Part shown: positions 1,009 through 45,219 of the stretch, piece by piece
Numbering within the stretch: position 1 is the first letter of the stretch
Layout: each line of letters starts with the position of its first letter
DNA from: a virus
Taxonomy: Duplodnaviria; Heunggongvirae; Uroviricota; Caudoviricetes
Reading direction: 5' to 3' (one strand)
IMG/VR virus record: IMGVR_UViG_2740892444_000003
Span: 1-45,219 of that record
DNA: 45,219 nucleotides
The notes under the pieces: model-generated
Database searches by the model: none
The model's input: only the letters and a program-made list of their open reading frames with translations
What the model was told of the DNA's origin: nothing
Made by a program: the position numbers and the translations under genes

Positions 1009-1083
1009 GTCCTCTTAGTTAAATGGATATAACGAGCCCCTCCTAAGGGCTAATTGCAGGTTCGATTCCTGCAGGGGACACCA
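1009..1083 (+). tRNA. argW: tRNA-Arg (anticodon CCU), attachment site of the prophage
   Basis: 75-nt sequence GTCCTCTTAGTTAAATGGATATAACGAGCCCCTCCTAAGGGCTAATTGCAGGTTCGATTCCTGCAGGGGACACCA read directly; cloverleaf-compatible with anticodon loop CTCCTAA (CCU), T-arm GGTTCGATTCC and CCA end. Confidence 0.9.
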
Positions 1084-1244: not shown

Positions 1245-2402
1245 ATGCTCACCGTTAAGCAGATTGAAGCAGCAAAGCCGAAAGAAAAACCATACCGCCT
1301 ACTCGATGGTAATGGACTGTACCTTTATGTCCCTGTATCCGGGAAAAAGGTATGGCAGCTTCGCTACAAGATTGACGGTAAGGAGAAAGTCCTAACCGTA
1401 GGAAAATATCCGCTAATGACTTTGCAGGAGGCAAGGGATAAGGCATGGACTGCGAGGAAAGACATCTCGGTTGGCATCGATCCGGTAAAAGCGAAAAAGG
1501 CTTCGTCTAACAACAATTCCTTTAGCGCCATTTACAAGGAATGGTACGAGCACAAGAAGCAAGTCTGGTCAGTAGGCTATGCAAATGAACTTGCCAAAAT
1601 GTTTGATGACGACATTTTACCCATCATCGGCGGCCTTGAGATTCAGGATATTGAGCCGATGCAACTGCTGGAAGTAATCCGCAGATTCGAAGATCGCGGT
1701 GCAATGGAGCGAGCCAACAAAGCCCGCAGAAGATGTGGCGAGGTTTTCCGTTACGCTATTGTCACCGGAAGGGCTAAATATAACCCAGCACCTGACCTTG
1801 CTGACGCCATGAAGGGATACCGCAAGAAGAACTTCCCGTTTCTTCCTGCAGACCAGATCCCGGCATTCAACAAAGCACTGGCAACATTTTCAGGAAGTAT
1901 CGTATCGCTCATTGCCACCAAGGTTTTGCGCTATACAGCCCTAAGAACGAAAGAGCTTCGTTCCATGCAATGGAAGAACGTCGATTTTGAAAACAGGATT
2001 ATCACCATCGACGCCAATGTGATGAAGGGACGCAAAATTCATGTGGTTCCTATGTCAGACCAGGTGGTTGAACTTCTCACTACGCTAAGCTCAATCACCA
2101 AACCAGTATCAGAGTTTGTTTTTGCCGGGCGCAACGATAAGAAGAAGCCAATCTGCGAGAATGCGGTATTGCTTGTGATCAAACAAATCGGCTATGAGGG
2201 TCTGGAAAGCGGTCACGGATTCAGGCATGAATTCAGCACGATTATGAACGAGCACGAATGGCCTGCTGATGCTATTGAAGTGCAACTGGCACATGCCAAC
2301 GGCGGATCTGTGCGCGGTATTTACAACCATGCTCAGTATCTAGATAAGCGCAGAGAAATGATGCAGTGGTGGGCGGACTGGATTGATGAAAAGGTGGAGT
2401 GA
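1245..2402 (+). CDS. intS: Tyrosine-recombinase integrase (P4-type)
   Basis: ORF immediately downstream of the tRNA; track ORF begins at a GTG at 1209, likely ATG start at 1245 (MLTVKQIEAAKP...); integrase-like C-terminal region; matches K-12 IntS from memory. Confidence 0.85.
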   Translation: MLTVKQIEAAKPKEKPYRLLDGNGLYLYVPVSGKKVWQLRYKIDGKEKVLTVGKYPLMTLQEARDKAWTARKDISVGIDPVKAKKASSNNNSFSAIYKEWYEHKKQVWSVGYANELAKMFDDDILPIIGGLEIQDIEPMQLLEVIRRFEDRGAMERANKARRRCGEVFRYAIVTGRAKYNPAPDLADAMKGYRKKNFPFLPADQIPAFNKALATFSGSIVSLIATKVLRYTALRTKELRSMQWKNVDFENRIITIDANVMKGRKIHVVPMSDQVVELLTTLSSITKPVSEFVFAGRNDKKKPICENAVLLVIKQIGYEGLESGHGFRHEFSTIMNEHEWPADAIEVQLAHANGGSVRGIYNHAQYLDKRREMMQWWADWIDEKVE

Positions 2403-2551
2403 TCCACCTTAACTATCGAAGAGCACAAAGTCTTGCAATCCAGTGCAAAGCTTTGCGTACCAGAGTTTTTCCTCATCAACTACCGCAAGTATCGATCGAT
2501 TGAGACTTGGATGATAGACTTCATGTCTTTCAGAACTCATTGATTAAATAA

Positions 2552-2914
2552 ATGTTAAAGCTATTTGCAAAGTACACCTCGATTGGTGTGCTGAACACAC
2601 TTATACACTGGGTGGTTTTTGGTGTATGTATCTATGCCGCGCATACCAATCAGGCTCTGGCAAACTTCGCAGGTTTCGTTGTGGCTGTGAGCTTTAGCTT
2701 CTTCGCGAATGCAAAATTCACATTCAAAGCATCGACTACAACGATGCGCTACATGTTATATGTCGGGTTCATGGGAACACTGAGTGCTACTGTTGGATGG
2801 GCTGCTGATAAGTGCTCGCTTCCTCCAATTATCACTCTTATCACCTTCTCCGCCATCAGCCTGGTGTGCGGTTTCGTCTATTCAAAGTTCATTGTCTTTA
2901 GGGATGCGAAATGA
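2552..2914 (+). CDS. gtrA: GtrA flippase-like bactoprenol-glucose translocase (120 aa)
   Basis: Small four-helix hydrophobic protein directly upstream of and overlapping (ATGA) the GtrB gene; canonical gtrABC organisation. Confidence 0.8.
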
Positions 2915-3840
2915 AAATTTCTTTAGTCGTTCCGGTCTTTAACGAAGAGGCCACGATACCTATTTTTTATAAAGCCGTGCGCGAATTTGAAGGGCTTCAG
3001 CAGCATGAAGTCGAGATAGTCTTCATAAACGATGGCAGCAAAGACGCTACAGAATCAATTATCAACGAGCTTGCTGTTGCCGACCCGCTTGTGGTTTCGC
3101 TGTCGTTCACACGTAACTTCGGCAAAGAACCTGCCCTGTTCGCAGGTCTGGACCATGCTACCGGGGAGGCAATTATCCCGATTGACGTTGATCTGCAAGA
3201 CCCTATCGAAGTTATTCCTCACTTGATAGAGAAATGGCAGGCCGGTGCAGATATGGTTCTGGCTAAACGCTCTGACCGCTCCACTGACAGCAGGCTGAAG
3301 CGTAAATCTGCTGAGTGGTTCTATAAACTTCATAACAAAATCAGCAACCCTCAGATAGAAGAGAATGTTGGCGACTTCCGGCTCATGTCTCGCGAAGTAG
3401 TAGAAAACATTAAGCTCATGCCAGAACGAAACCTGTTTATGAAGGGGATACTATCCTGGGTAGGTGGTAAGACAGATGTGGTTGAATACGTAAGAGCCGA
3501 AAGAGCCGCAGGAAAAAGTAAGTTTAATGGCTGGAAGCTTTGGAATCTGGCGCTTGAAGGGATAACGAGTTTTTCTACCTTCCCGCTGAGAATGTGGACG
3601 TATATCGGTCTCTTCGTAGCCGGTTGCTCATTTTTTTATGGGGCATACATGATTGTGGATACCCTTTGTTTTGGCAATCCGGTGAAGGGATATACATCGA
3701 TAATGGTATCGATGCTATTCCTTGGCGGCGTTCAGCTGATAGGTATTGGAGTGCTCGGCGAATACATTGGCCGCATTTACATCGAAACAAAGAACAGACC
3801 AAGATACATTACGAAAAGGGATAATGTTGAACATGAGTGA
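2911..3840 (+). CDS. gtrB: GtrB bactoprenol glucosyltransferase (GT2 family, 309 aa)
   Basis: N-terminal GT2 fold (VPVFNEE...DGSKD...DxD region) with C-terminal membrane helices; follows gtrA. Confidence 0.85.
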
Positions 3841-5317
3841 TTCAGCGTTAAAAAACGATAAATTCCAGCGAATTTTTAGAATTGTTTTGCCATTGTCCAT
3901 TTTATACATATCTTGGATTGTTTTTACTGGCAGACTTTACATTGATGACTTAGGCCGTTCTCTTTACGGTTATACATCGTGGGGACAGGACGGCAGGCCA
4001 GCCTCTGATCTATTAATGTCAGCCTTGAGTTTTGGCACGCCAATCCTAGACATTACACCCCTTCCCCAGATTTTATCTGTCATTGCCTTAAGTGCAGTTC
4101 TGTCACTTTGGGGGGTAAAGTATCTGCCAAGAAAAGGCACAACCTCTTCTGCTGTATGTGTTTTATATTTTATTCTATCACCATTTTTCCTTGAGAATAT
4201 CTCATATCGTTATGACTCACTACCTATGTCTTTGAGTCTTGTTGCACTATTATTGCCATATGCATTGAAGAAAAAACCTTGGTCTCCTTTTCTACATTTC
4301 ATTTCTGTTATCGCTTCCCTGTCTTTTTATCAGGCATCAATATCGTTATTCATATTACTTATGATTATTGATGTAATTCATCTTTATTTTTCTAAAAAAG
4401 ATGATTTAAGACATCTAGAAATAATCAAGTCAATTGCAATTAACACGCTTGCCTTTGCTGCTGGATTTGTTTTTTATAAGGTATTAATTGCTAGCTCCTT
4501 TGCGTCAGGCTCTTATTCTGATGAGCACTCAAAAATTATAAACGTTGACCACACCTTTTTTGATGTACTGTATAATAATACAGTTGTCATATTTACGTGG
4601 CTTTTAAACCCGCTTTATAAGTGCTCACCTTTTCTCTTTAAGGGGTGCGCATTGATCTTGCTAGTTAGCATCATAAAGATATCAATGACATCCAAAGATG
4701 TGAAATCCAGAGTTATTAACTTATTTTTACTTTCCGCCTTGATTACTGCGGGCTTTTTCTCTTGCTTTGCACACATTGCACTTCTTAAAACCCCTGTGCT
4801 AGCGCCTAGAGTATTAATATCTTTCACAGGATTCTTCCTGCTTTTTGCATACCTAGTAGTCCAAGCCTTTGAAAGTAAAAAAATTCAGCTGATACTTTTG
4901 GCCCCTGTTGTTTTTTTTAGTTTCATACTTTCATTTTCTTATGCAAACGCATCAAGCTCCCAAAAGGAGCTAGATAAATTAATTTCCACCTCAATTTATA
5001 ACGACATTTCTCATCAAGATTTGAGTTTTAAAAATGTTTTCATTCATGGCGTTATGCCAACATCGAAGCAGAGGGCATTGATAGTCGAGAGACTTCCGAT
5101 AATGAATTCTCTGATACCTATTTATTTAAATAACAATTGGTCTTGGGGGGCTATGATTCTTAAGCATTACCTTCTCGACTACAATGTGGACGCAACAATT
5201 ACAGATCCAAAAAAGGAAATCTGCTCCTTAACACCATTCTCCAGGTCTAAGGATTATTCACTATACAGCAAAGGTGATACCTTAATAGTATCATTTGATA
5301 AGACTGGATGCCGCTGA
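3824..5317 (+). CDS. Serotype-specific O-antigen glucosyltransferase (GtrC-type polytopic membrane protein)
   Basis: Long very AT-rich ORF encoding a multi-pass membrane protein directly after gtrB; the track ORF starts upstream inside gtrB, most plausible start is ATG 3824 (or 3833) with an AAGGG RBS. Confidence 0.7.
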
Positions 5318-5325
5318 TTAAAGTC

Positions 5326-5355
5326 TAGGCCGCCATGCGGCCTACTTTATTTTGG
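5326..5355 (+). terminator. Intrinsic terminator between convergent glucosyltransferase and tail fibre assembly genes
   Basis: Perfect inverted repeat TAGGCCGC-CAT-GCGGCCTA followed by CTTTATTTTGG. Confidence 0.5.
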
Positions 5356-5748
5356 CCAGTCAATATCAGGTGCCTTGGAAGTATCAACCCGGCTTAAAAG
5401 CACGCGATATTTTTTCAGTGTAGTTAACTGTGTTCTTTCTTCATCTGTCGCCATGTCTAGGTCGACCGCATCCTGTAGCACGTCGATGCGCTGGCTGGCG
5501 TCATCCATTAGCATCTTCTTCATTGCTACGTTTGACTGGATTTTTGCCTGGGTTAGATCTTCCTGCTGCTGCTCGGTCAAAGGTGGGCGCGAAAAATTAG
5601 CGCCGTCATACAGATAGCCAGGCCCGGCAATGTTGCTTTCATCGTATTCAACAACAATCGTCCCAGCATCATGCTGGTATTCTCCTTCCCCATCCCAAAG
5701 GAAAGTATTTTCCACTACTCCATCACGAACTAATGCCCATGTTTTCAT
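5347..5748 (-). CDS. Tail fibre assembly chaperone (Tfa)
   Basis: Small ORF immediately downstream of the tail fibre gene with start overlapping its stop; start taken at internal ATG (MKTWALV...). Confidence 0.65.
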
Positions 5749-6758
5749 TACGCATACTCCCAAATAATAACCAGCCCAGGTGCGCCATCACCACCAGCCA
5801 CAGCAGCATTGCCCGCTGTAACGGATGATGGGCCGCCGCCAGAACCGTAACCCGAACCATTGATGCCATGAGCATTGTTGGCTGTAATGTATCCTCCTGC
5901 GCCGAAGCGAGACGATCCACCAGGGGCGTCGACAATTATTGAAGAACTGATAACGACGGAGGAGCTGGCGCCTTCACCTGGAGTGCTAATTATGTTCGCC
6001 CCGGTAGCACCGCCTGAAACTACCGCCGCCACGGTAGAAAAAGGGAAATTGTTAGTTGGCCCTGCTGGTTCCCCTGAACTGCCACCTGCCGCCGTCATCA
6101 GGCTGCCGAAAGATGATGTGCCGCCGACAGAAGGATATACATCGGAAACCGTTCCACCCAAACCCTTGCCGCCAACAGTAACCTGAACCCCACTAAATCC
6201 AGAAGTGAACTGCCCTTTAGCGTAAGATCCAGCGCCACCGGCACCACCAACGGATACCTGGCCAGGTCCTGCGGCGCGCGCTCCAGCGCCCCCCCCTCCC
6301 CCGCCAACCATTTCAACAATTACTTTTTTCGTGCCGGGAGTAGCATTATAAATACCGGAACTGTAGAAAACCCGCACGTTCAGCAGGCGACCAACGTATC
6401 CGCTCTCATCTCCCAAACCGAGGTTTTCGAGAGCCGTTTTCACCGTGCCATCCGATTTGATATCGCCAAACGGATTCTTGCGGCTCAGGTATTCAACAGC
6501 AAATCCCGATCCCAGCAATTCAACAAAACCGGGCAGATCACCATTATCAAGCACATCCCGTTGCGTTTTGTCACTTACAAACTGGGCCAGAGCTGCAGCA
6601 ATAAAGCTGGCCTGCCGAATAACCTTATTGACTTGCGCACTGGATGCTTTCCCTGCTGTAAATCCGGATAAAAGCGCAGGCAACGCTTCCCATTCCTCCT
6701 GCGACATAACATTGGCATTCCGATCAGTTGCAAACGCTTTAAAGTCATTTTTCGCCAT
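5748..6758 (-). CDS. Tail fibre protein with glycine-rich repeat region
   Basis: ORF with long Gly/Ala/Ser-rich tracts ([25 protein letters not shown]...) between baseplate genes and Tfa; start taken at ATG overlapping the upstream stop. Confidence 0.65.
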
Positions 6759-7438
6759 CAGAGTAATACTCCCCATGCCCCTACATCAAAACCACTGATG
6801 AATTCGTTATCCATATCAAAACCAAAAAATTTTGAGCCTTCCGATGGAGTTTCCACCGAAGGTGTTTCAATGCCCCCCGCCCATACCCCGGCGGCTTTTA
6901 CTGTTAGATACCCCTGTTTAATTGCCGCAATTAACTCACGCGATACATCTGAAATATCAGTATCAGGAAAGACCCAGACCGATATCGTCATGTCCTGGTT
7001 ATCGACTATCTGCATTCGCAGCCCGGATCCTGCTGTTGCAGCGTCAAGAATTGCTGGAAGCGAATCATTCCGTCCGTCCCAGTTATTAATCGCAATCTTC
7101 GCTTTAAGGATGACACGATAAGTTTCATCGCTGAGGTACATGTATCCGGAATCAGGATCGTATGGCCCCTGCCATACACCCTGATCATATCCAAGCCCGT
7201 CGGTATCCCAGCTGAAATAGACACCTGAGATAGGCTGGCTGACAACACGGCTACGCCCGATCCACAATCCCAGAATGTCAAGTTGCACACCAACGGCAGA
7301 GTCAATATCAAATGCAGTAATCAGCCCTCTGGTGGCAGCCGCAACATCAATAAGCGGCCGGGTCATCAGATCAACATGTGCAAGAAATTTAGGTTTGGTG
7401 GCGTGGTAGTTCGTGATTAGTTCGGTGTATTTGCTCAT
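6758..7438 (-). CDS. Baseplate protein (P2 gpI-like)
   Basis: Position between baseplate J-like and tail fibre genes in a V-W-J-I-H-G gene order; 226 aa. Confidence 0.5.
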   Translation of the reverse strand: MSKYTELITNYHATKPKFLAHVDLMTRPLIDVAAATRGLITAFDIDSAVGVQLDILGLWIGRSRVVSQPISGVYFSWDTDGLGYDQGVWQGPYDPDSGYMYLSDETYRVILKAKIAINNWDGRNDSLPAILDAATAGSGLRMQIVDNQDMTISVWVFPDTDISDVSRELIAAIKQGYLTVKAAGVWAGGIETPSVETPSEGSKFFGFDMDNEFISGFDVGAWGVLL

Positions 7439-36642: not shown

Positions 36643-36876
36643 TTATGCTGCTGATGCTCTACGCGATACGAACACCAGATTTTCCTTTTTCACAGGTTTA
36701 TAACCCGTGAAATTACGAGTGGCTTCTTCGATTGCATTCGCTTTATCTGGGGAAGCTCTTCGAAACCCATATGCAATCTGATCAAGATAGCCAACTGAAG
36801 TATTCGCTAATGCGGCGAGTCGCTTCCATTCCTCACTAGAAGCCTCTTTTCGCCAGCGTAGTAGTTCATTACTCAT
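36643..36876 (-). CDS. cro: Cro-like repressor (HTH)
   Basis: 77-aa ORF divergent from cI across the operator region; first gene of the rightward early operon. Confidence 0.6.
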   Translation of the reverse strand: MSNELLRWRKEASSEEWKRLAALANTSVGYLDQIAYGFRRASPDKANAIEEATRNFTGYKPVKKENLVFVSRRASAA

Positions 36877-36989
36877 TAGTGCCTCCGTTTATCACACAGA
36901 GCAACTTTACCATTTTGATAAATAAACTGCAATGGAGATTTATCAAAATGCGTATTTATCCATTTGCTAAATAGAGGGAGAATCGTGGG
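36877..36989. promoter_or_regulatory. Divergent immunity promoter/operator region (OR/PR/PRM analogue)
   Basis: 113-bp AT-rich gap between cro and cI with repeated TTTATC(A/C)/GATAAA half-sites, e.g. TTTACCATTTTGATAAA at 36906..36922. Confidence 0.55.
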
Positions 36990-37694
36990 ATGGAAAACAA
37001 AGATATTCGCAAATCGAATCTGGCGTTTTTGCTAGATGAGCATAAAAAAATCGCTGGTAACACTAATGCAAGCTTTGCCGATAAGCTTGGAGTTAGCCCT
37101 TCTCAACTCACGCAAGTCTCCGGTGAAAAAAGCACTCGAAACATAGGGGATAAACTAGCAAGAAAATTCGAAGCCGCACTTGGGTTACCTAATGGGTGGC
37201 TTGATTTGGTACATGATGTAACACCAATTGCATCATGCTCAGATTCTTTAACTTTTGTCGGTCAGGTAAGAAAAGGGTTAGTGCGCGTGGTTGGTGAGGC
37301 AATTCTTGGTGTTGATGGTGCCATCGAGATGACCGAAGAGCGCGATGGGTGGCTCAAGATTTATAGCGATGATCCAGATGCCTTTGGTCTTCGTGTGAAA
37401 GGAGACAGCATGTGGCCTAGAATAAAATCAGGAGAATATGTACTCATTGAGCCTAACACCAAAGTATTCCCGGGTGATGAGGTGTTTGTCAGAACCGTTG
37501 AAGGACACAACATGATCAAAGTTCTTGGCTATGACAGAGACGGAGAATACCAGTTTACAAGCATCAACCAGGACCATAGGCCAATAACGTTGCCTTATCA
37601 TCAAGTAGCAAAGGTGGAGTATGTGGCTGGTATTCTGAAGCAATCTCGCCATCTGGATGACATCGAGGCAAGGGAGTGGCTGAAAAGTTCGTGA
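36990..37694 (+). CDS. cI: CI-like repressor with LexA/S24 autopeptidase domain
   Basis: N-terminal HTH and C-terminal S24 domain (GDSMWPRIKSGEYVLIEP...), divergent from cro. Confidence 0.85.
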   Translation: MENKDIRKSNLAFLLDEHKKIAGNTNASFADKLGVSPSQLTQVSGEKSTRNIGDKLARKFEAALGLPNGWLDLVHDVTPIASCSDSLTFVGQVRKGLVRVVGEAILGVDGAIEMTEERDGWLKIYSDDPDAFGLRVKGDSMWPRIKSGEYVLIEPNTKVFPGDEVFVRTVEGHNMIKVLGYDRDGEYQFTSINQDHRPITLPYHQVAKVEYVAGILKQSRHLDDIEAREWLKSS

Positions 37695-37860
37695 CTTCAT
37701 CGTCACATAGCTGATAGCCAGTGGCCTGAAGAGACGTTTGGGTAATTCCAATTGTTATTTATGAACAGTCAATTCCGCCAGATTGGTGATGATGACAAGC
37801 CGCTATGGCTTAGCTTCAACATGAATACATTCATCGTAACCACAGCAGGGAGTTTAACGA

Positions 37861-38865
37861 ATGAATTCTATTGAAAATCATGATGTTTATGTGTATACAG
37901 GCGATATTCATCGTGATGGTTATCTTGATCTCACCAATGAAATCAAGAAACGTAAGTCACAACATGGATTAAAAGAAAATGTTATCTTCTGTGTTGCTAC
38001 TTATGGCGGTGATCCAAATGCAGGTTATCGTATAGGTAGAGCTCTACAGCACCATTATGAAACGGTAACACTTTTAGTTGTTGGACCATGCAAAAGTGCT
38101 GGTACACTAATAGCTATAGCAGCCAATAAACTTGTTATTGGCGACATGGGGGAGCTTGGACCATTAGATATCCAACTGAAAAAAAACGATGAAATAGGTG
38201 AAATGAGTTCTGGTTTAGCTATCATGACAGCTCTTGATGCTCTAAAGGAACGCTCTATTTCAGCGTTTAACTCACACCTTGTTAAGATAAGGTACGAAAA
38301 TCAGATCAGTACTAAAATGTCTGCTGATATCGCAACCAGACTTACAGAAGCGTTGATAGCACCTATGGCCGCACAGATAGATCCTATAAAGCTTGGTGAA
38401 CATCAGCGCGCAATGAGTATAGCTATCACTTATGGTCAACGATTAGCAGACAAACCAAGCAGCCTAAAAGAAGGGGCGTTAGGCAAACTAATAGCCTCAT
38501 ATCCTTCACATGGATTTGTTATCGACAGAAAAGAAGCCAAGGAACTTTTCAAGTGTGTTGAACATCCTGAAGGCATAACAGAAATACTCTATAATCTTTT
38601 CTGTGACAAAATTCATAGTGGTGAAATTCCAACATTTGGAAAGCCAAGAGTAATGGATTTCACTGTTTCCCAACAAGATAAAGAGGAATACACTAATGCC
38701 GAAGAATCTGCAACCGGAGATGGAAGTTCTCAACAGGATGCTGGAAAGCCAGATCCAGGAAGGTCGCGATCTGGCAAGAAAAGCGGAACAACACCTGAAC
38801 GAGATCAAGAAGGAATTGGAGCCGTATCAATTCAACCACCAGATGAACAGCAACCTAATGCGTGA
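37861..38865 (+). CDS. ClpP-fold serine peptidase (SDH/S49-like) in the rex position
   Basis: Motifs VATYGGDPNAGYRIGRAL and VVGPCKSAGTLIAIAA resemble the oxyanion/active-site Ser region of SDH/SppA/ClpP-clan peptidases; last ~55 codons are Gly/Ser/Pro-rich and overlap another ORF. Confidence 0.55.
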   Translation: MNSIENHDVYVYTGDIHRDGYLDLTNEIKKRKSQHGLKENVIFCVATYGGDPNAGYRIGRALQHHYETVTLLVVGPCKSAGTLIAIAANKLVIGDMGELGPLDIQLKKNDEIGEMSSGLAIMTALDALKERSISAFNSHLVKIRYENQISTKMSADIATRLTEALIAPMAAQIDPIKLGEHQRAMSIAITYGQRLADKPSSLKEGALGKLIASYPSHGFVIDRKEAKELFKCVEHPEGITEILYNLFCDKIHSGEIPTFGKPRVMDFTVSQQDKEEYTNAEESATGDGSSQQDAGKPDPGRSRSGKKSGTTPERDQEGIGAVSIQPPDEQQPNA

Positions 38866-38881
38866 TCTCTTTGCTCTGTAA
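38696..38881 (+). CDS. Small helical protein (61 aa) overlapping the 3' end of the peptidase gene in the +1 frame
   Basis: AAGAGGA RBS 8 nt upstream of ATG 38696; protein-like helical sequence; followed directly by a terminator. Confidence 0.4.
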   Translation: MPKNLQPEMEVLNRMLESQIQEGRDLARKAEQHLNEIKKELEPYQFNHQMNSNLMRDLFAL

Positions 38882-38895
38882 TTAATTCCTCACAT

Positions 38896-38922
38896 CCCGG
38901 CCTCAGCGCCGGGTTTTCTTTG
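38896..38922 (+). terminator. Intrinsic terminator after the cI-peptidase operon
   Basis: CCCGGC-loop-GCCGGG hairpin followed by TTTTCTTTG. Confidence 0.6.
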
Positions 38923-42329: not shown

Positions 42330-42459
42330 CTGGACATGCAGCGATCCTCGACATGTGCTGTGGCAGCCGCATGTTCTGGTTAGATAAGAATGACGAACGG
42401 GCGAGATAAGCGATCGGTTAAGTGCTATAGTAATGCGCTTTTGTATTTATGGAGTGAAT

Positions 42460-43158
42460 ATGAAAAATATCATACTGGCATCATTGTTAGTGGCATCGCC
42501 GGGTGCATTTGCAGCCAGCTTTGACTGCCAAAAGGCTTCGACAGCAATCGAACATAAGATCTGCGATAACGAACGGCTGTCAAAATTAGACGAACAGCTT
42601 AGCTCTGCCTATTCTAGTGCCCTCAAAGAAAACCCAGAGAACGCAGACACCCTAAAAATGGTTCAACGTCAGTGGGTAAATATGCGTGGAAAACTCACTG
42701 ATAATAAGGCTCTGGAGCTGGCTTATCTTATCCAAATTAATGGCCTCAAAGGTTTGGGGAGTTCAGTCAGCGTAACAGCGGCCAATGAGATACCCACGTC
42801 GACGCAGAAACATTCTGAAGAGCAGGAAGAAACAAGTAAGGCAGAAGTTAAGTCGGTCAAGAACGGCAATAAGCTAACCTTAGAGTCATTCCGAGCTAAA
42901 TATGTAGAAGTAGATGGTGAGTATTACAGCACGACATCCATTCCTAGAGGCAGTTCGTTCTTGTTCACTTGCGCCAGTCGTATTGCTGATGACCAAGTGA
43001 ATGTTTGGAAGAAACATGCAGCCAAAGAGGGCAAAATCGACCTATTCTTTGAGGTTGAGAATCACTTACACACTGCTATGTTGAACGCCAATTTCCAGAA
43101 GTTGAATTCAGACCCTGCCAAAAGAGGTATTTGTAATCTGATTAACGCAGTGCCGTAA
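42460..43158 (+). CDS. Secreted DUF1311/LprI-like protein (lysozyme-inhibitor-like fold), moron
   Basis: Signal peptide MKNIILASLLVASPGAFA; mature N-terminus FDCQKASTAIEHKICDNERLSKLDEQLSSAY matches the LprI-type pattern (C-x-A-x-T...E..IC...L..LD..L...Y). Confidence 0.55.
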   Translation: MKNIILASLLVASPGAFAASFDCQKASTAIEHKICDNERLSKLDEQLSSAYSSALKENPENADTLKMVQRQWVNMRGKLTDNKALELAYLIQINGLKGLGSSVSVTAANEIPTSTQKHSEEQEETSKAEVKSVKNGNKLTLESFRAKYVEVDGEYYSTTSIPRGSSFLFTCASRIADDQVNVWKKHAAKEGKIDLFFEVENHLHTAMLNANFQKLNSDPAKRGICNLINAVP

Positions 43159-43577: not shown

Positions 43578-43619
43578 GCCTGATTTGCAGGTTCGATTCC
43601 CTATTCGGAGATAGCACTC

Positions 43620-43820
43620 ATGCAACACGAACTACAACCTGATTCACTGGTTGATTTGAAATTCATCATGGCTGATACTGGCTTCGGTAAAACCTTCATT
43701 TATGACCGGATTAAGTCCGGCGACCTGCCAAAAGCCAAAGTTATCCACGGGCGAGCAAGATGGTTATATCGTGACCATTGTGAATTCAAAAATAAGCTCT
43801 TAAGCCGCGCCAATGGGTAA
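43620..43820 (+). CDS. torI: Excisionase / recombination directionality factor (TorI/AlpA family)
   Basis: 66-aa protein (MQHELQPDSLVDLKFIMADTGFGKTFIYDRIKSGDLPKAKV...) recognised as KplE1 TorI; lies ~75 nt inside attR. Confidence 0.75.
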   Translation: MQHELQPDSLVDLKFIMADTGFGKTFIYDRIKSGDLPKAKVIHGRARWLYRDHCEFKNKLLSRANG

Positions 43821-44349
43821 AATAGCGGGTAAAATATTTCTCACATCTAAAAAATACCATTCCAATCAATCCCCTGCTGCCTCAAGTAGATGTCTGCAGG
43901 GGACACCAGATACCCTTCAAACGAAATCTACCTTCACCCCGTAAAAGATGGGTTTGGCAGCACACTTGCCTTATATCTACTCATTTTTACTGCAACAGGT
44001 TGAAATCTCAGCACTGTCAGAAAGCGCTGATGACTAAACAGCCCTGGGCCGGGCGATGTAACCATCACACAGAATCCTGATAGCGAAATATGGCGTGACT
44101 CGATACTTCACTCCGCAATGCATTCCTTGATGAATTCGCAGGACCGTGATACACGGGACAGGTCACTGAATGACGACAATGTCCTGGAAATCAGCGAACC
44201 GCGCATCTGAAGTACATTTGAGCGACTGTACCAGAACATGAATGAGGCGTTTGGATTAGGCGATTATTAGCAGGGCTAAGCATTTTACTATTATTATTTT
44301 CCGGTTGAGGGATATAGAGCTATCGACAACAACCGGAAAAAGTTTACGT

Positions 44350-45219
44350 CTATATTGCTGAAGGTACAGGCGTTTCCATAACTATTTGCTCGCGTTTTTT
44401 ACTCAAGAAGAAAATGCCAAATAGCAACATCAGGCAGACAATACCCGAAATTGCGAAGAAAACTGTCTGGTAGCCTGCGTGGTCAAAGAGTATCCCAGTC
44501 GGCGTTGAAAGCAGCACAATCCCAAGCGAACTGGCAATTTGAAAACCAATCAGAAAGATCGTCGACGACAGGCGCTTATCAAAATTTGCCACGCTGTATT
44601 TGAAGACGGATATGACACAAAGTGGAACCTCAATAGCATGTAACAGCTTCACTAATGAAATAATCCAGGGGTTAACGAACAGCGCGCAGGAAAGGATACG
44701 CAACGCCATAATCACAACACCGATAAGTAATGCATTTTTTGGCCCTACCCGATTCACAAAGAAAGGAATAATCGCCATGCATAGCGCTTCGAGTACCACC
44801 TGGAATGAGTTGAGATAACCATACAGGCGCGTTCCTACATCGTGTGATTCGAATAAACCTGCATAAAAGACAGGAAAAAGTTGTTGATCAAAAATGTTAT
44901 AGAAAGACCACGTCCCCACAATAAATATGACGAAAACCCAGAAGTTTCGATCCTTGAAAACTGCGATAAAATCCTCTTTTTTTACCCCTCCCGCATCCGC
45001 CGCTACGCACTGGTGATCCTTATCTTTAAAACACATGTTGATCATCATAAATACAGCGCCAAATAGCGAGACCAACCAGAAGTTGATATGGGGACTGATA
45101 CTAAAAAATATGCCGGCAAAGAACGCGCCAATAGCATAGCCAAAAGATCCCCAGGCGCGCGCTGTTCCATATTCGAAATGAAAATTTCGCGCCATTTTTT
45201 CGGTGAAGCTGTCAAGCAA
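44350..45219 (-). CDS. cscB: Sucrose:H+ symporter CscB (LacY-family MFS), 3' part; N-terminus lies beyond the window
   Basis: 289-aa C-terminal fragment recognised as CscB; ORF runs to the window edge. Confidence 0.8.
   Translation of the reverse strand: MLDSFTEKMARNFHFEYGTARAWGSFGYAIGAFFAGIFFSISPHINFWLVSLFGAVFMMINMCFKDKDHQCVAADAGGVKKEDFIAVFKDRNFWVFVIFIVGTWSFYNIFDQQLFPVFYAGLFESHDVGTRLYGYLNSFQVVLEALCMAIIPFFVNRVGPKNALLIGVVIMALRILSCALFVNPWIISLVKLLHAIEVPLCVISVFKYSVANFDKRLSSTIFLIGFQIASSLGIVLLSTPTGILFDHAGYQTVFFAISGIVCLMLLFGIFFLSKKREQIVMETPVPSAI

Follow-up and report, generated by a model that had tools for sequence, protein, structure and literature searches.

The locus described here raises two questions: does the cluster of three genes between the integrase and the tail fibre genes of an Escherichia coli prophage encode a complete system for glucosylating the host O-antigen, and does the AT-rich third gene of that cluster have an origin separate from that of its two neighbours? 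All positions refer to the window, that is the whole stretch of 45,219 nucleotides that was analysed. The prophage extends from 1069 to 43908 (about 42.8 kb) and sits at the E. coli argW site, with the argW tRNA-Arg(CCT) gene called by ARAGORN at 1009-1083 on the forward strand. The attL core is the last 15 nt of argW (CTGCAGGGGACACCA, 1069-1083, forward strand), and the one other exact copy of this 15-mer in the window, where none is expected by chance, is the attR core at 43894-43908 on the same strand, close to a torI-like excisionase ORF (43620-43820). The interval between attL and the gtr cassette is taken up by an intS-type tyrosine integrase gene (1245-2402, forward strand; PF00589, PF22022 and PF13356), which is about 96% identical in DNA to the integrases of HK620, Sf6 and CUS-3, and the integrase at the equivalent position in 30EVA2 is labelled by PGAP as prophage integrase IntS. 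The prophage has full structural, lysis and replication modules, the structural module being 95.5% identical to that of phage vB_EcoM-606R2, and the carrier is a myovirus-type prophage that is apparently full-length.

The prediction of a gtrA-gtrB-glucosyltransferase cassette on a prophage, made originally from the letters of the DNA, was borne out, with three genes at 2552-5317 that have both Pfam and PHROG matches. They are intact, co-oriented and overlapping, carried by a temperate phage beside its integration module, with int upstream and the tail fibre module downstream. At the stop and start codons gtrA shares 4 nt with gtrB, and gtrB shares 8 nt with the third gene, which suggests that translation of the three genes may be coupled. 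The first gene, gtrA (2552-2914, forward strand, 120 amino acids), matches PF04138 over residues 7-116 (E 6.4e-14) and phrog_2224 (E 9.8e-71), and its product is 96% identical to YfdG of E. coli K-12. It has the size and kind expected of this component, a membrane protein of about 120 amino acids in the GtrA/DPMS family, and such small four-helix membrane proteins are proposed to be the flippase for undecaprenyl-phosphate-glucose. The second gene, gtrB (2911-3840, forward strand, 309 amino acids), matches PF00535 (E 2.1e-30) and phrog_841 (E 1.4e-163), and residues 2-301, effectively the full length, match the solved structure of Synechocystis GtrB (5EKP, E 7.6e-86), with 86% identity to K-12 YfdH. 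It is a polyprenyl-phosphate glycosyltransferase of the GT2 family, anchored in the membrane by its C-terminus, and is taken to be a bactoprenol-phosphate glucosyltransferase, glucose being assumed as the donor sugar by homology to GtrB. Neither gtrA nor the third gene has a model in NCBIfam. The best NCBIfam matches of gtrB, PgfS and ArnC, both score under their cutoffs, and the sugar that gtrB uses is therefore not fixed by any equivalog.

The third gene (3833-5317, forward strand, 494 amino acids) is of the gtrC type, with matches to PF14264, which bears the name Glucosyl transferase GtrII (E 4.7e-27), and to phrog_4829, labelled GtrC-like (E 1.8e-88). PGAP places the start at 3833 in identical genomes, and a second ATG in the same frame lies at 3824. 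Structure prediction gives a confident model of a polytopic protein with the GT-C fold, and conserved acidic residues lie in the first extracytoplasmic loop, as is expected of the third component of a Gtr system. D38 and D39, in the first loop after TM1, are proposed as the catalytic acidic pair, with a soluble domain at the C-terminus, and it is this protein that should set the acceptor and the linkage. A sequence search of the PDB with it returned no match at E values up to 1.

The third protein aligns over its full length with GtrC of phage P22 (32% identity, E 3e-64), and both match PF14264; its identity to all GtrC proteins of P22-like phages is 30-32%. Orthologues within a Salmonella GtrC family are more than 96% identical in amino acids (PMC3688519), a level far above 32%, and hence membership of Salmonella GtrC family I was rejected and the acceptor and linkage made by P22 cannot be transferred to this protein. 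The original prediction had called for comparison with known GtrC and GtrS variants and had named close orthology to K-12 gtrS with no LPS phenotype as the outcome that would count against it; the best BLASTP match to YfdI/GtrS has an E value of 1.6 and K-12 orthology is rejected. YfdI is without a Pfam match and unrelated in sequence. BLASTP likewise detected no similarity between the third protein and GtrII or GtrV, although S. flexneri GtrII matches PF14264 as well. The third protein is thus a remote homologue of P22 GtrC that shares one Pfam family with it and stands outside GtrC family I.

In the rest of its anatomy the cassette resembles several known systems. It shares with the P22 gtrABC operon, which confers the O:1 factor, the order and overlaps of the three genes, the terminator and the convergent tail gene, but P22 is a podovirus and has its attP between int and gtrA, whereas here attL lies upstream of int. 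The yfdG-yfdH-yfdI (gtrABS) cassette of the cryptic K-12 prophage CPS-53 occupies the same chromosomal site in the order yfdC-argW-intS-gtrA-gtrB-third gene-tfa, although CPS-53 is a remnant of 10 kb. The serotype-converting Shigella flexneri phages SfII and SfV are contractile-tailed temperate phages in which conserved gtrA and gtrB genes and a type-specific third gene (gtrII or gtrV) lie beside the tail fibre and tfa genes (PMC3636060). In the Sf phages attP lies between gtrA and int and integration is at thrW (PMC3636060), in contrast to the prophage here, where int stays beside gtrA, the site is argW and the integration module is of the Sf6/HK620 type.

The closest relatives of the third gene are found in Pantoea prophages. 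Its product is 82% identical to the Pantoea prophage protein P0003 (GCA_913776085.1), and the cassette of that genome has the order gtrA-gtrB-third gene-tfa-fibre beside a yfdC-like formate/nitrite-transporter gene. The two loci are collinear, with 80% DNA identity, over a stretch that begins at the 3' end of gtrA and runs into the 3' part of tfa, but gtrA is only 63% identical in DNA and the Pantoea carrier has a Mu-like baseplate and tail. Among species-representative genomes, a related-locus search with the single protein found no relative of the third gene, and an alignment-based scan found only distant ones, the best being 45% identical in Candidatus Pantoea alvi.

It had been argued from its composition that the third gene was of separate horizontal origin. 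The composition itself is as described: gtrA and gtrB have GC contents of 0.455 and 0.459 (GC3 0.521 and 0.490), against 0.364 (GC3 0.343) for the third gene and 0.489 for the whole window. Over all 1485-bp windows the mean is 0.489 (sd 0.046), and the minimum, 0.362 at 3801, falls exactly on the third gene. As GC3 falls too, the synonymous sites being AT-rich, amino-acid content alone is not enough to explain the low GC. Taken by itself this lowest-GC stretch might be read as the mark of recent import from a low-GC donor organism, yet every one of the seven third genes examined lies between 28 and 38% GC: the value is 0.369 in a sister E. coli allele, 0.318 in P22, 0.380 in HF4s, 0.276 in K-12, and 0.374 and 0.335 in Pantoea loci that are themselves of 0.525 GC. 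Third genes are AT-rich in every host examined and the closest homologues of this one are in GC-rich Erwiniaceae, which makes a recent import of this kind highly unlikely. AT-richness is a long-standing trait of this class of gene and not a donor signature, and it is therefore poor evidence of recent foreign origin.

The separate ancestry of the third gene is instead shown directly, because near-identical sister prophages carry a different allele. In 23CRST013 and MB30 the identity to the window is 98-99.9% up to 3812-3815 and resumes at 5354; gtrA and gtrB are 98-99.9% identical and tfa is identical, but the third gene is a different one (WP_104773902.1), with 39% protein identity, which also matches PF14264. 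The exchangeable block (3813-5353, forward strand) opens within gtrB, of which it takes in the last 9 codons, continues through the third gene and the terminator belonging to it, and closes with the final codons of tfa. Its borders at 3812/3813 and 5353/5354 are sharp, and each allele comes with its own terminator. The third gene is thus a modular unit, a block of about 1.5 kb swapped between otherwise near-identical prophages, and the separate origin holds although the argument from composition does not. DNA of the third gene was found in 7 of 5426 complete E. coli genomes. These come from humans, pigs, wastewater and a frog, and all three ORFs are intact in them, with 99.9-100% conservation. 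The complete genomes nearest to the window are MMC-J-0020 (99.9%) and BY63/BY68 (99.8%), over 16.7 kb, and none is identical.

How the cassette might be expressed can be read from the spacer between int and gtrA. Just after the stop codon of int is an imperfect hairpin (2423-2458, forward strand; fold -15 kcal/mol, z -2.9) that is conserved with K-12 and P22 and may serve as the int terminator or bind a protein. Downstream of it, the core promoter and GATC4 region of P22 can be aligned without gaps to 2494-2527 (forward strand), and it is by this identity of about 60% that the promoter and start site are placed; a simple scan for the sigma-70 consensus called no promoter upstream of gtrA. The predicted promoter includes a GATC at 2494-2497, equivalent to GATC4 of P22, and an extended -10 element, TGaTAGACT, at 2512-2520, and transcription is predicted to begin near 2527. 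This leaves 25 nt to the ATG of gtrA, and the P22 start site likewise lies 25 bp upstream of its gtrA (PMC2909390). The spacer has GATC sites only at 2401 and 2494, whereas the P22 locus (L003) has them at 2085, 2098, 2149 and 2162. In the alignment the window lacks about 87 bp that in P22 hold OxyR(A), OxyR(B) and GATC1-2, the GATC3 position is substituted, and the regulatory region of K-12 CPS-53 is truncated alike. Dam/OxyR phase variation of the P22 type (that of P22, LT2_I and PT4_II) was accordingly rejected on the alignment and the GATC mapping. As both OxyR half-sites, (A) and (B), are missing and one Dam site out of four is retained, the cassette is predicted to be expressed constitutively, without phase variation, and a P22 construct with the promoter plus GATC4 was uniformly active at 349 Miller units (PMC2909390).

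At the other end, a terminator scan places the intrinsic terminator of the operon at 5326-5354 (forward strand), an 8-bp GC-rich stem followed by a T-run, the hairpin at 5326-5344 folding at -16.4 kcal/mol (z -3.5); P22 and SfV have an annotated terminator at the equivalent position. The interval first drawn for the cassette, which ended at 5355, includes this hairpin and the T-run.

The reading favoured here, to which we would give a probability of roughly three in four, is that of a complete three-component Gtr cassette on an argW prophage, the third protein of which glucosylates a lipid-linked glycan, most likely the O-antigen. On the model of the Gtr mechanism summarised for E. coli and Shigella (PMC7685785), the three genes would be transcribed from the P22-like core promoter as far as the hairpin at 5326-5344. 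At the cytoplasmic face GtrB would transfer glucose from UDP-glucose to undecaprenyl phosphate, GtrA would flip the Und-P-Glc to the periplasmic face, and the GT-C-fold third protein would pass the glucose to a specific sugar of the periplasmic lipid-linked glycan, which may change the serotype and the phage-receptor properties of the cell. The modification of O-antigen and the exclusion of superinfecting phages would both follow from the paradigm of the family.

Convergent with the operon are the gene for a tail fibre assembly chaperone, Tfa (5347-5748, reverse strand; PF02413, E 3.2e-26, so labelled by PGAP), and that for the tail fibre (5748-6776, reverse strand; phrog_11303 and phrog_863). 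The fibre has a conserved N-terminal 126 amino acids and a variable, glycine-rich C-terminal tip, and in most related prophages the match to the window begins only at 6409 or 6581; no depolymerase domain was detected in this short glycine-rich fibre. When third-gene alleles were compared with fibre tips, over two E. coli alleles and one Pantoea locus, the tip was 40% identical to the fibre of the Pantoea prophage, which carries PF21722 (Gly_rich_2), and the prophages with the sister allele had the tfa and tail module in common with this one. The 2953-bp cassette is found 100% identical, as is the end of the prophage, in hosts that carry four O-antigen gene clusters unrelated to one another, counted over the hosts other than ET120 and PEC411: O174, O2/O50, an untyped rfbBDAC-type (rhamnose-type) cluster and an O8/O9-type ABC-transporter cluster. 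It is therefore not possible to tie adsorption or glucosylation to a single O-antigen structure, and this weakens the suggestion of a fibre matched to the unmodified receptor.

With four host clusters it also follows that the acceptor may be absent, or may not be O-antigen, in some hosts. The cassette could accordingly be intact but a mismatched passenger in this host and in most others, the enzymes being made but the acceptor sugar or linkage missing, with no effect on serotype or phage adsorption. The closest relatives of the cassette are in Pantoea and not E. coli, wzzB is a pseudogene in one host, the galF-gnd region of another is disrupted by IS1, and in Salmonella the GtrC families II and IV, which are not confined to structurally similar serogroups, cause no detectable change of the O-antigen (PMC3688519). 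Against this stands the conservation of three intact ORFs in all seven genomes, and as all E. coli O units begin with GlcNAc or GalNAc (PMC7685785) a common acceptor is conceivable, so that an idle cassette appears rather unlikely, though it is the most serious of the alternatives. Alternatively, the third protein might decorate some other glycan, for which the LPS core, the enterobacterial common antigen and a capsule-like polymer would be candidates. The hosts differ in O-antigen genotype, but the LPS core and enterobacterial common antigen are expected to be common to them as E. coli. The sugar, too, might be one other than glucose, given that the gtrB matches to PgfS and ArnC are under cutoff and that three-component GT-C systems are known that act with other sugars and acceptors (PMC11127046, PMC8035078). 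But K-12 YfdH, to which GtrB is so similar, is annotated as a bactoprenol glucosyl transferase, the third protein shares its Pfam family with P22 GtrC and S. flexneri GtrII, the gtr clusters of which are described as glucosylating O-antigen (PMC3688519, PMC3636060), and the classical O-antigen-converting phages likewise have their cassette beside the tail-fibre genes; another glycan or sugar is thus improbable.

Glucosylation of O-antigen by a complete cassette remains the preferred reading, and the cassette is in most respects ordinary and intact, a gtr system of a well-understood kind that does not challenge the present understanding of such systems. What sets it apart is its third-gene allele, which is rare in E. 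coli and without a characterised close relative. More speculatively, and with only a slim chance of being right, this GtrC allele may recognise an acceptor that many O-antigens have in common, which could be the WecA-initiated reducing-end GlcNAc or some other common surface glycan, so that a constitutive cassette and a variable fibre tip would together form a broad-spectrum receptor-modifying and receptor-recognising module that moves between phages of E. coli and Pantoea. If this were true, one cassette could act in O174, O2/O50, O8-type and other backgrounds.

The sharply bounded swap of alleles provides a clean natural example of the exchange of a specificity gene. Gtr cassettes create O-antigen subtypes that are invisible to in-silico serotyping based on wzx and wzy, and can alter both phage susceptibility and recognition by antibodies. 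If the cassette is active, its third-gene allele would define a glucosylated variant, so far unrecorded, of the O-antigens of its E. coli hosts, among which there are at least four O-antigen genotypes.

The three genes of the cassette are all intact ORFs with overlapping stop and start codons: gtrA (2552-2914; PF04138, phrog_2224), gtrB (2911-3840; PF00535, phrog_841) and a third, presumably specificity-determining gene (3833-5317; PF14264, phrog_4829 'GtrC-like'), after which there is a terminator hairpin (5326-5344; -16.4 kcal/mol, z -3.5) and then a T-run. The family assignments are unambiguous, GtrB matches the solved Synechocystis GtrB (5EKP) over its full length (E 7.6e-86), and GtrA and GtrB have 96% and 86% protein identity to their counterparts in K-12, which shares the locus. 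The naming of a serotype-conversion-type cassette was largely correct, and the cassette is an ordinary one. The Gtr mechanism has been summarised for Shigella, Salmonella and E. coli (PMC7685785); by homology GtrB would make Und-P-Glc, GtrA would flip it to the periplasmic face and the third protein, as a GT-C enzyme, would move the glucose onto a specific O-unit residue.

Of 5426 complete E. coli genomes, 695 have the gtrA-gtrB DNA (2552-3780) at megablast level and only seven have the third gene, all at 99.9-100% identity; these seven are the only genomes in which at least 80% of the whole cassette is covered. Another seven are 98-99.9% identical to the window from the int-gtrA spacer as far as position 3812-3815 (query position 1410-1413), where the match ends. 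In the two of these that were inspected, 23CRST013 and MB30, the slot is filled by a different gene (WP_104773902.1; 490 aa, PF14264) with only 39% protein identity to the third protein of the window. Identity to these sister prophages picks up again at 5354, inside the last codons of the tail-fibre assembly gene tfa (5347-5748), thus the exchanged block is about 3813-5353. Besides the third gene and the terminator that belongs to it, the block takes in nine codons at the end of gtrB and the 3' tip of tfa. The original prediction had given the third gene an origin separate from that of gtrA-gtrB because it is AT-rich; a separate history is now shown directly by this sharply bounded allele swap, which agrees with the proposal of Davies et al. 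that non-congruent phylogenies of Salmonella gtrA, gtrB and gtrC reflect recombination (PMC3688519). At least three families, unrelated in sequence, occupy this slot in E. coli phages: YfdI without a Pfam hit, the DUF6056 protein of phage HF4s and the PF14264 protein of the window.

The AT-richness itself is real, with a GC of 0.364 (GC3 0.343) in the third gene against 0.455 (0.521) in gtrA, 0.459 (0.490) in gtrB and 0.489 in the whole window. A scan of all 1485-bp windows (mean 0.489, sd 0.046) reaches its lowest GC, 0.362, at 3801, exactly on the third gene, and as synonymous sites are AT-rich too, the low GC exceeds any effect of amino-acid content. It does not, however, serve as the signature of a donor. 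The third gene has a GC of 0.369 in the sister E. coli allele, 0.374 in a Pantoea prophage (locus 0.525, neighbouring yfdC-like gene 0.579), 0.335 in a Pantoea-like locus (0.525 overall), 0.318 in P22, 0.380 in HF4s and 0.276 in K-12, so that AT-richness is a trait of this class of gene.

Comparison with K-12 YfdI/GtrS found no detectable similarity (best E 1.6), thus the third gene is not an orthologue of K-12 gtrS. Nor did BLASTP relate the protein to S. flexneri GtrII or GtrV, although GtrII belongs to the same Pfam family, and the closest characterised relative is P22 GtrC, which aligns along the full length at 32% identity (E 3e-64). The alignment has seven invariant positions (D39, P76, D128, M132, Y166, Q167 and R326) and three that are nearly invariant (Y36, D38 and R42). 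The first transmembrane helix (residues 9-32) leads directly into a YIDDLGR motif, the position at which the catalytic acidic residues of GT-C enzymes sit; the sidedness of the motif is one that we infer. After the last helix there is a soluble alpha/beta C-terminal domain of ~100 residues. The nearest homologues, at 81-82% protein identity, are in Pantoea prophages which have the same order of gtrA-gtrB-third gene-tfa-fibre and adjoin a yfdC-like gene, but in a carrier with a Mu-like tail, unlike the prophage of the window; over a stretch that begins at the 3' end of gtrA and reaches into the 3' part of tfa, the DNA is collinear and 80% identical. Among species-representative genomes the nearest are Candidatus Pantoea alvi (45%) and Erwinia piriflorinigrans (36%), with the wider family reaching Acetobacteraceae, Bordetella/Achromobacter, Rhodanobacteraceae, Desulfovibrio and others. 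The third gene is an uncharacterised, rare, Erwiniaceae-related GtrC allele.

The prophage carrying the cassette lies beside chromosomal yfdC (1-933, the start of the window) in argW, a tRNA-Arg(CCT) gene (1009-1083). The last 15 nt of argW (1069-1083, CTGCAGGGGACACCA) are repeated exactly once elsewhere in the window, at 43894-43908, with none expected by chance; the repeats are the attL and attR of a prophage of 42.8 kb. An IntS-type integrase (1245-2402) lies directly inside attL, in an int module of the Sf6/HK620/CUS-3 type, and the structural genes share 95.5% identity with those of phage vB_EcoM-606R2 and ~83% with those of Salmonella phage SEN34. At the right end the 3' end of argW is apparently split (43585-43600 and 43894-43908; cf. 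1055-1083), with the T-arm 16-mer TTGCAGGTTCGATTCC just upstream of a torI-like excisionase gene (43620-43820) and the att core downstream of it; the 16-mer is also found upstream of torI in CPS-53, the cryptic prophage of K-12, and upstream of xis in free phage HF4s. The chromosomal flank beyond attR (44350-45219, - strand) has a gene for a LacY/CscB-type oligosaccharide MFS permease (TIGR00882, E 1.6e-121) where K-12 has dsdC, thus the argW-dsd region differs in this strain. A second low-GC patch (36850-38900, about 0.40-0.42) holds an S24-peptidase (cI/LexA-like) repressor gene (36990-37694) and, beside the immunity region, a ClpP/SDH-like serine protease gene (37861-38865), a candidate moron or defence gene. 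A possible lysogenic-conversion gene (42433-43158) lies near the right end of the prophage, immediately ahead of the excision module; its product is a secreted protein of 241 aa that has an LprI (lysozyme-inhibitor) domain.

The gtr operon of P22 and several of those in Salmonella are expressed phase-variably. Alignment with P22, whose GATC sites are at 2085, 2098, 2149 and 2162 of the compared locus (L003), shows that the 87-bp segment with OxyR(A)/(B) and GATC1-2 is absent from the window, CPS-53 and HF4s, and that the GATC3 position is substituted. All that is left of a P22-type switch is the GATC4 equivalent (2494) and the downstream promoter region, which align without gaps. A P22 construct stripped down to the promoter and GATC4 gave a uniform Lac+ phenotype, its 349 Miller units amounting to some 44% of the full ON level (PMC2909390). 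As the layout of the window matches this construct, constitutive, non-phase-variable expression is predicted by homology, starting near 2527, where a simple sigma-70 scan called no promoter. An imperfect hairpin (2423-2458; -15 kcal/mol, z -2.9), conserved in K-12 and P22 and partly deleted in HF4s, follows the stop codon of the integrase gene and precedes the gtr promoter; it could be an int terminator or a binding site. The Sf phages (PMC3636060) and P22 have attP between gtrA and int, whereas here attL is upstream of int, so that int and gtr remain adjacent in the prophage, as they are in CPS-53 and HF4s.

The tail-fibre gene (5748-6776) and tfa are convergent with the gtr genes. The fibre has 342 aa, a conserved N-terminus, a variable glycine-rich tip and its Tfa chaperone, and domain searches detected no depolymerase domain in it. 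Of the 229 E. coli genomes sharing the tail/head module, most lack the tip and tfa (5347-6408) at megablast level. In sister genomes (L002 22609-22959; L005 8006-8356) the fibre gene is annotated by PGAP as a truncated pseudogene, yet its ORF of 342-345 aa is intact.

The fibre had been thought to match the unmodified O-antigen, and this is weakened by the hosts of the cassette. Six genomes carry the 2953-bp cassette at 100% identity and a seventh at 99.3%; the six represent five independent strains, as BY63 and BY68 share size and coordinates. Four different O-antigen gene clusters are found in these hosts: O174-family wzx/wzy in 30EVA2, O2/O50-family wzx/wzy in BY68, an untyped cluster containing rfbBDAC in PEC145, and in MMC-J-0020, the genome nearest to the window (99.9%), an IS1-disrupted galF-gnd region with O8/O9-type ABC-transporter mannan genes beyond wzzB. 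O-antigen functions are damaged in two of the hosts, by an internal stop in wzzB of 30EVA2 (L012 8261-9238) and by the IS1 truncation of galF-gnd in MMC-J-0020 (L017 22032-25477). For the third-gene enzyme it may be that the acceptor is common to the differing O-antigen glycans of its hosts, that it is active only in some of them, or that it acts on another glycan. An identical cassette across four O-antigen genotypes shows that neither prophage nor cassette is tied to one O-antigen structure, and it is this distribution, together with the clean-edged allele swap and the missing phase-variation switch, that is worth keeping.
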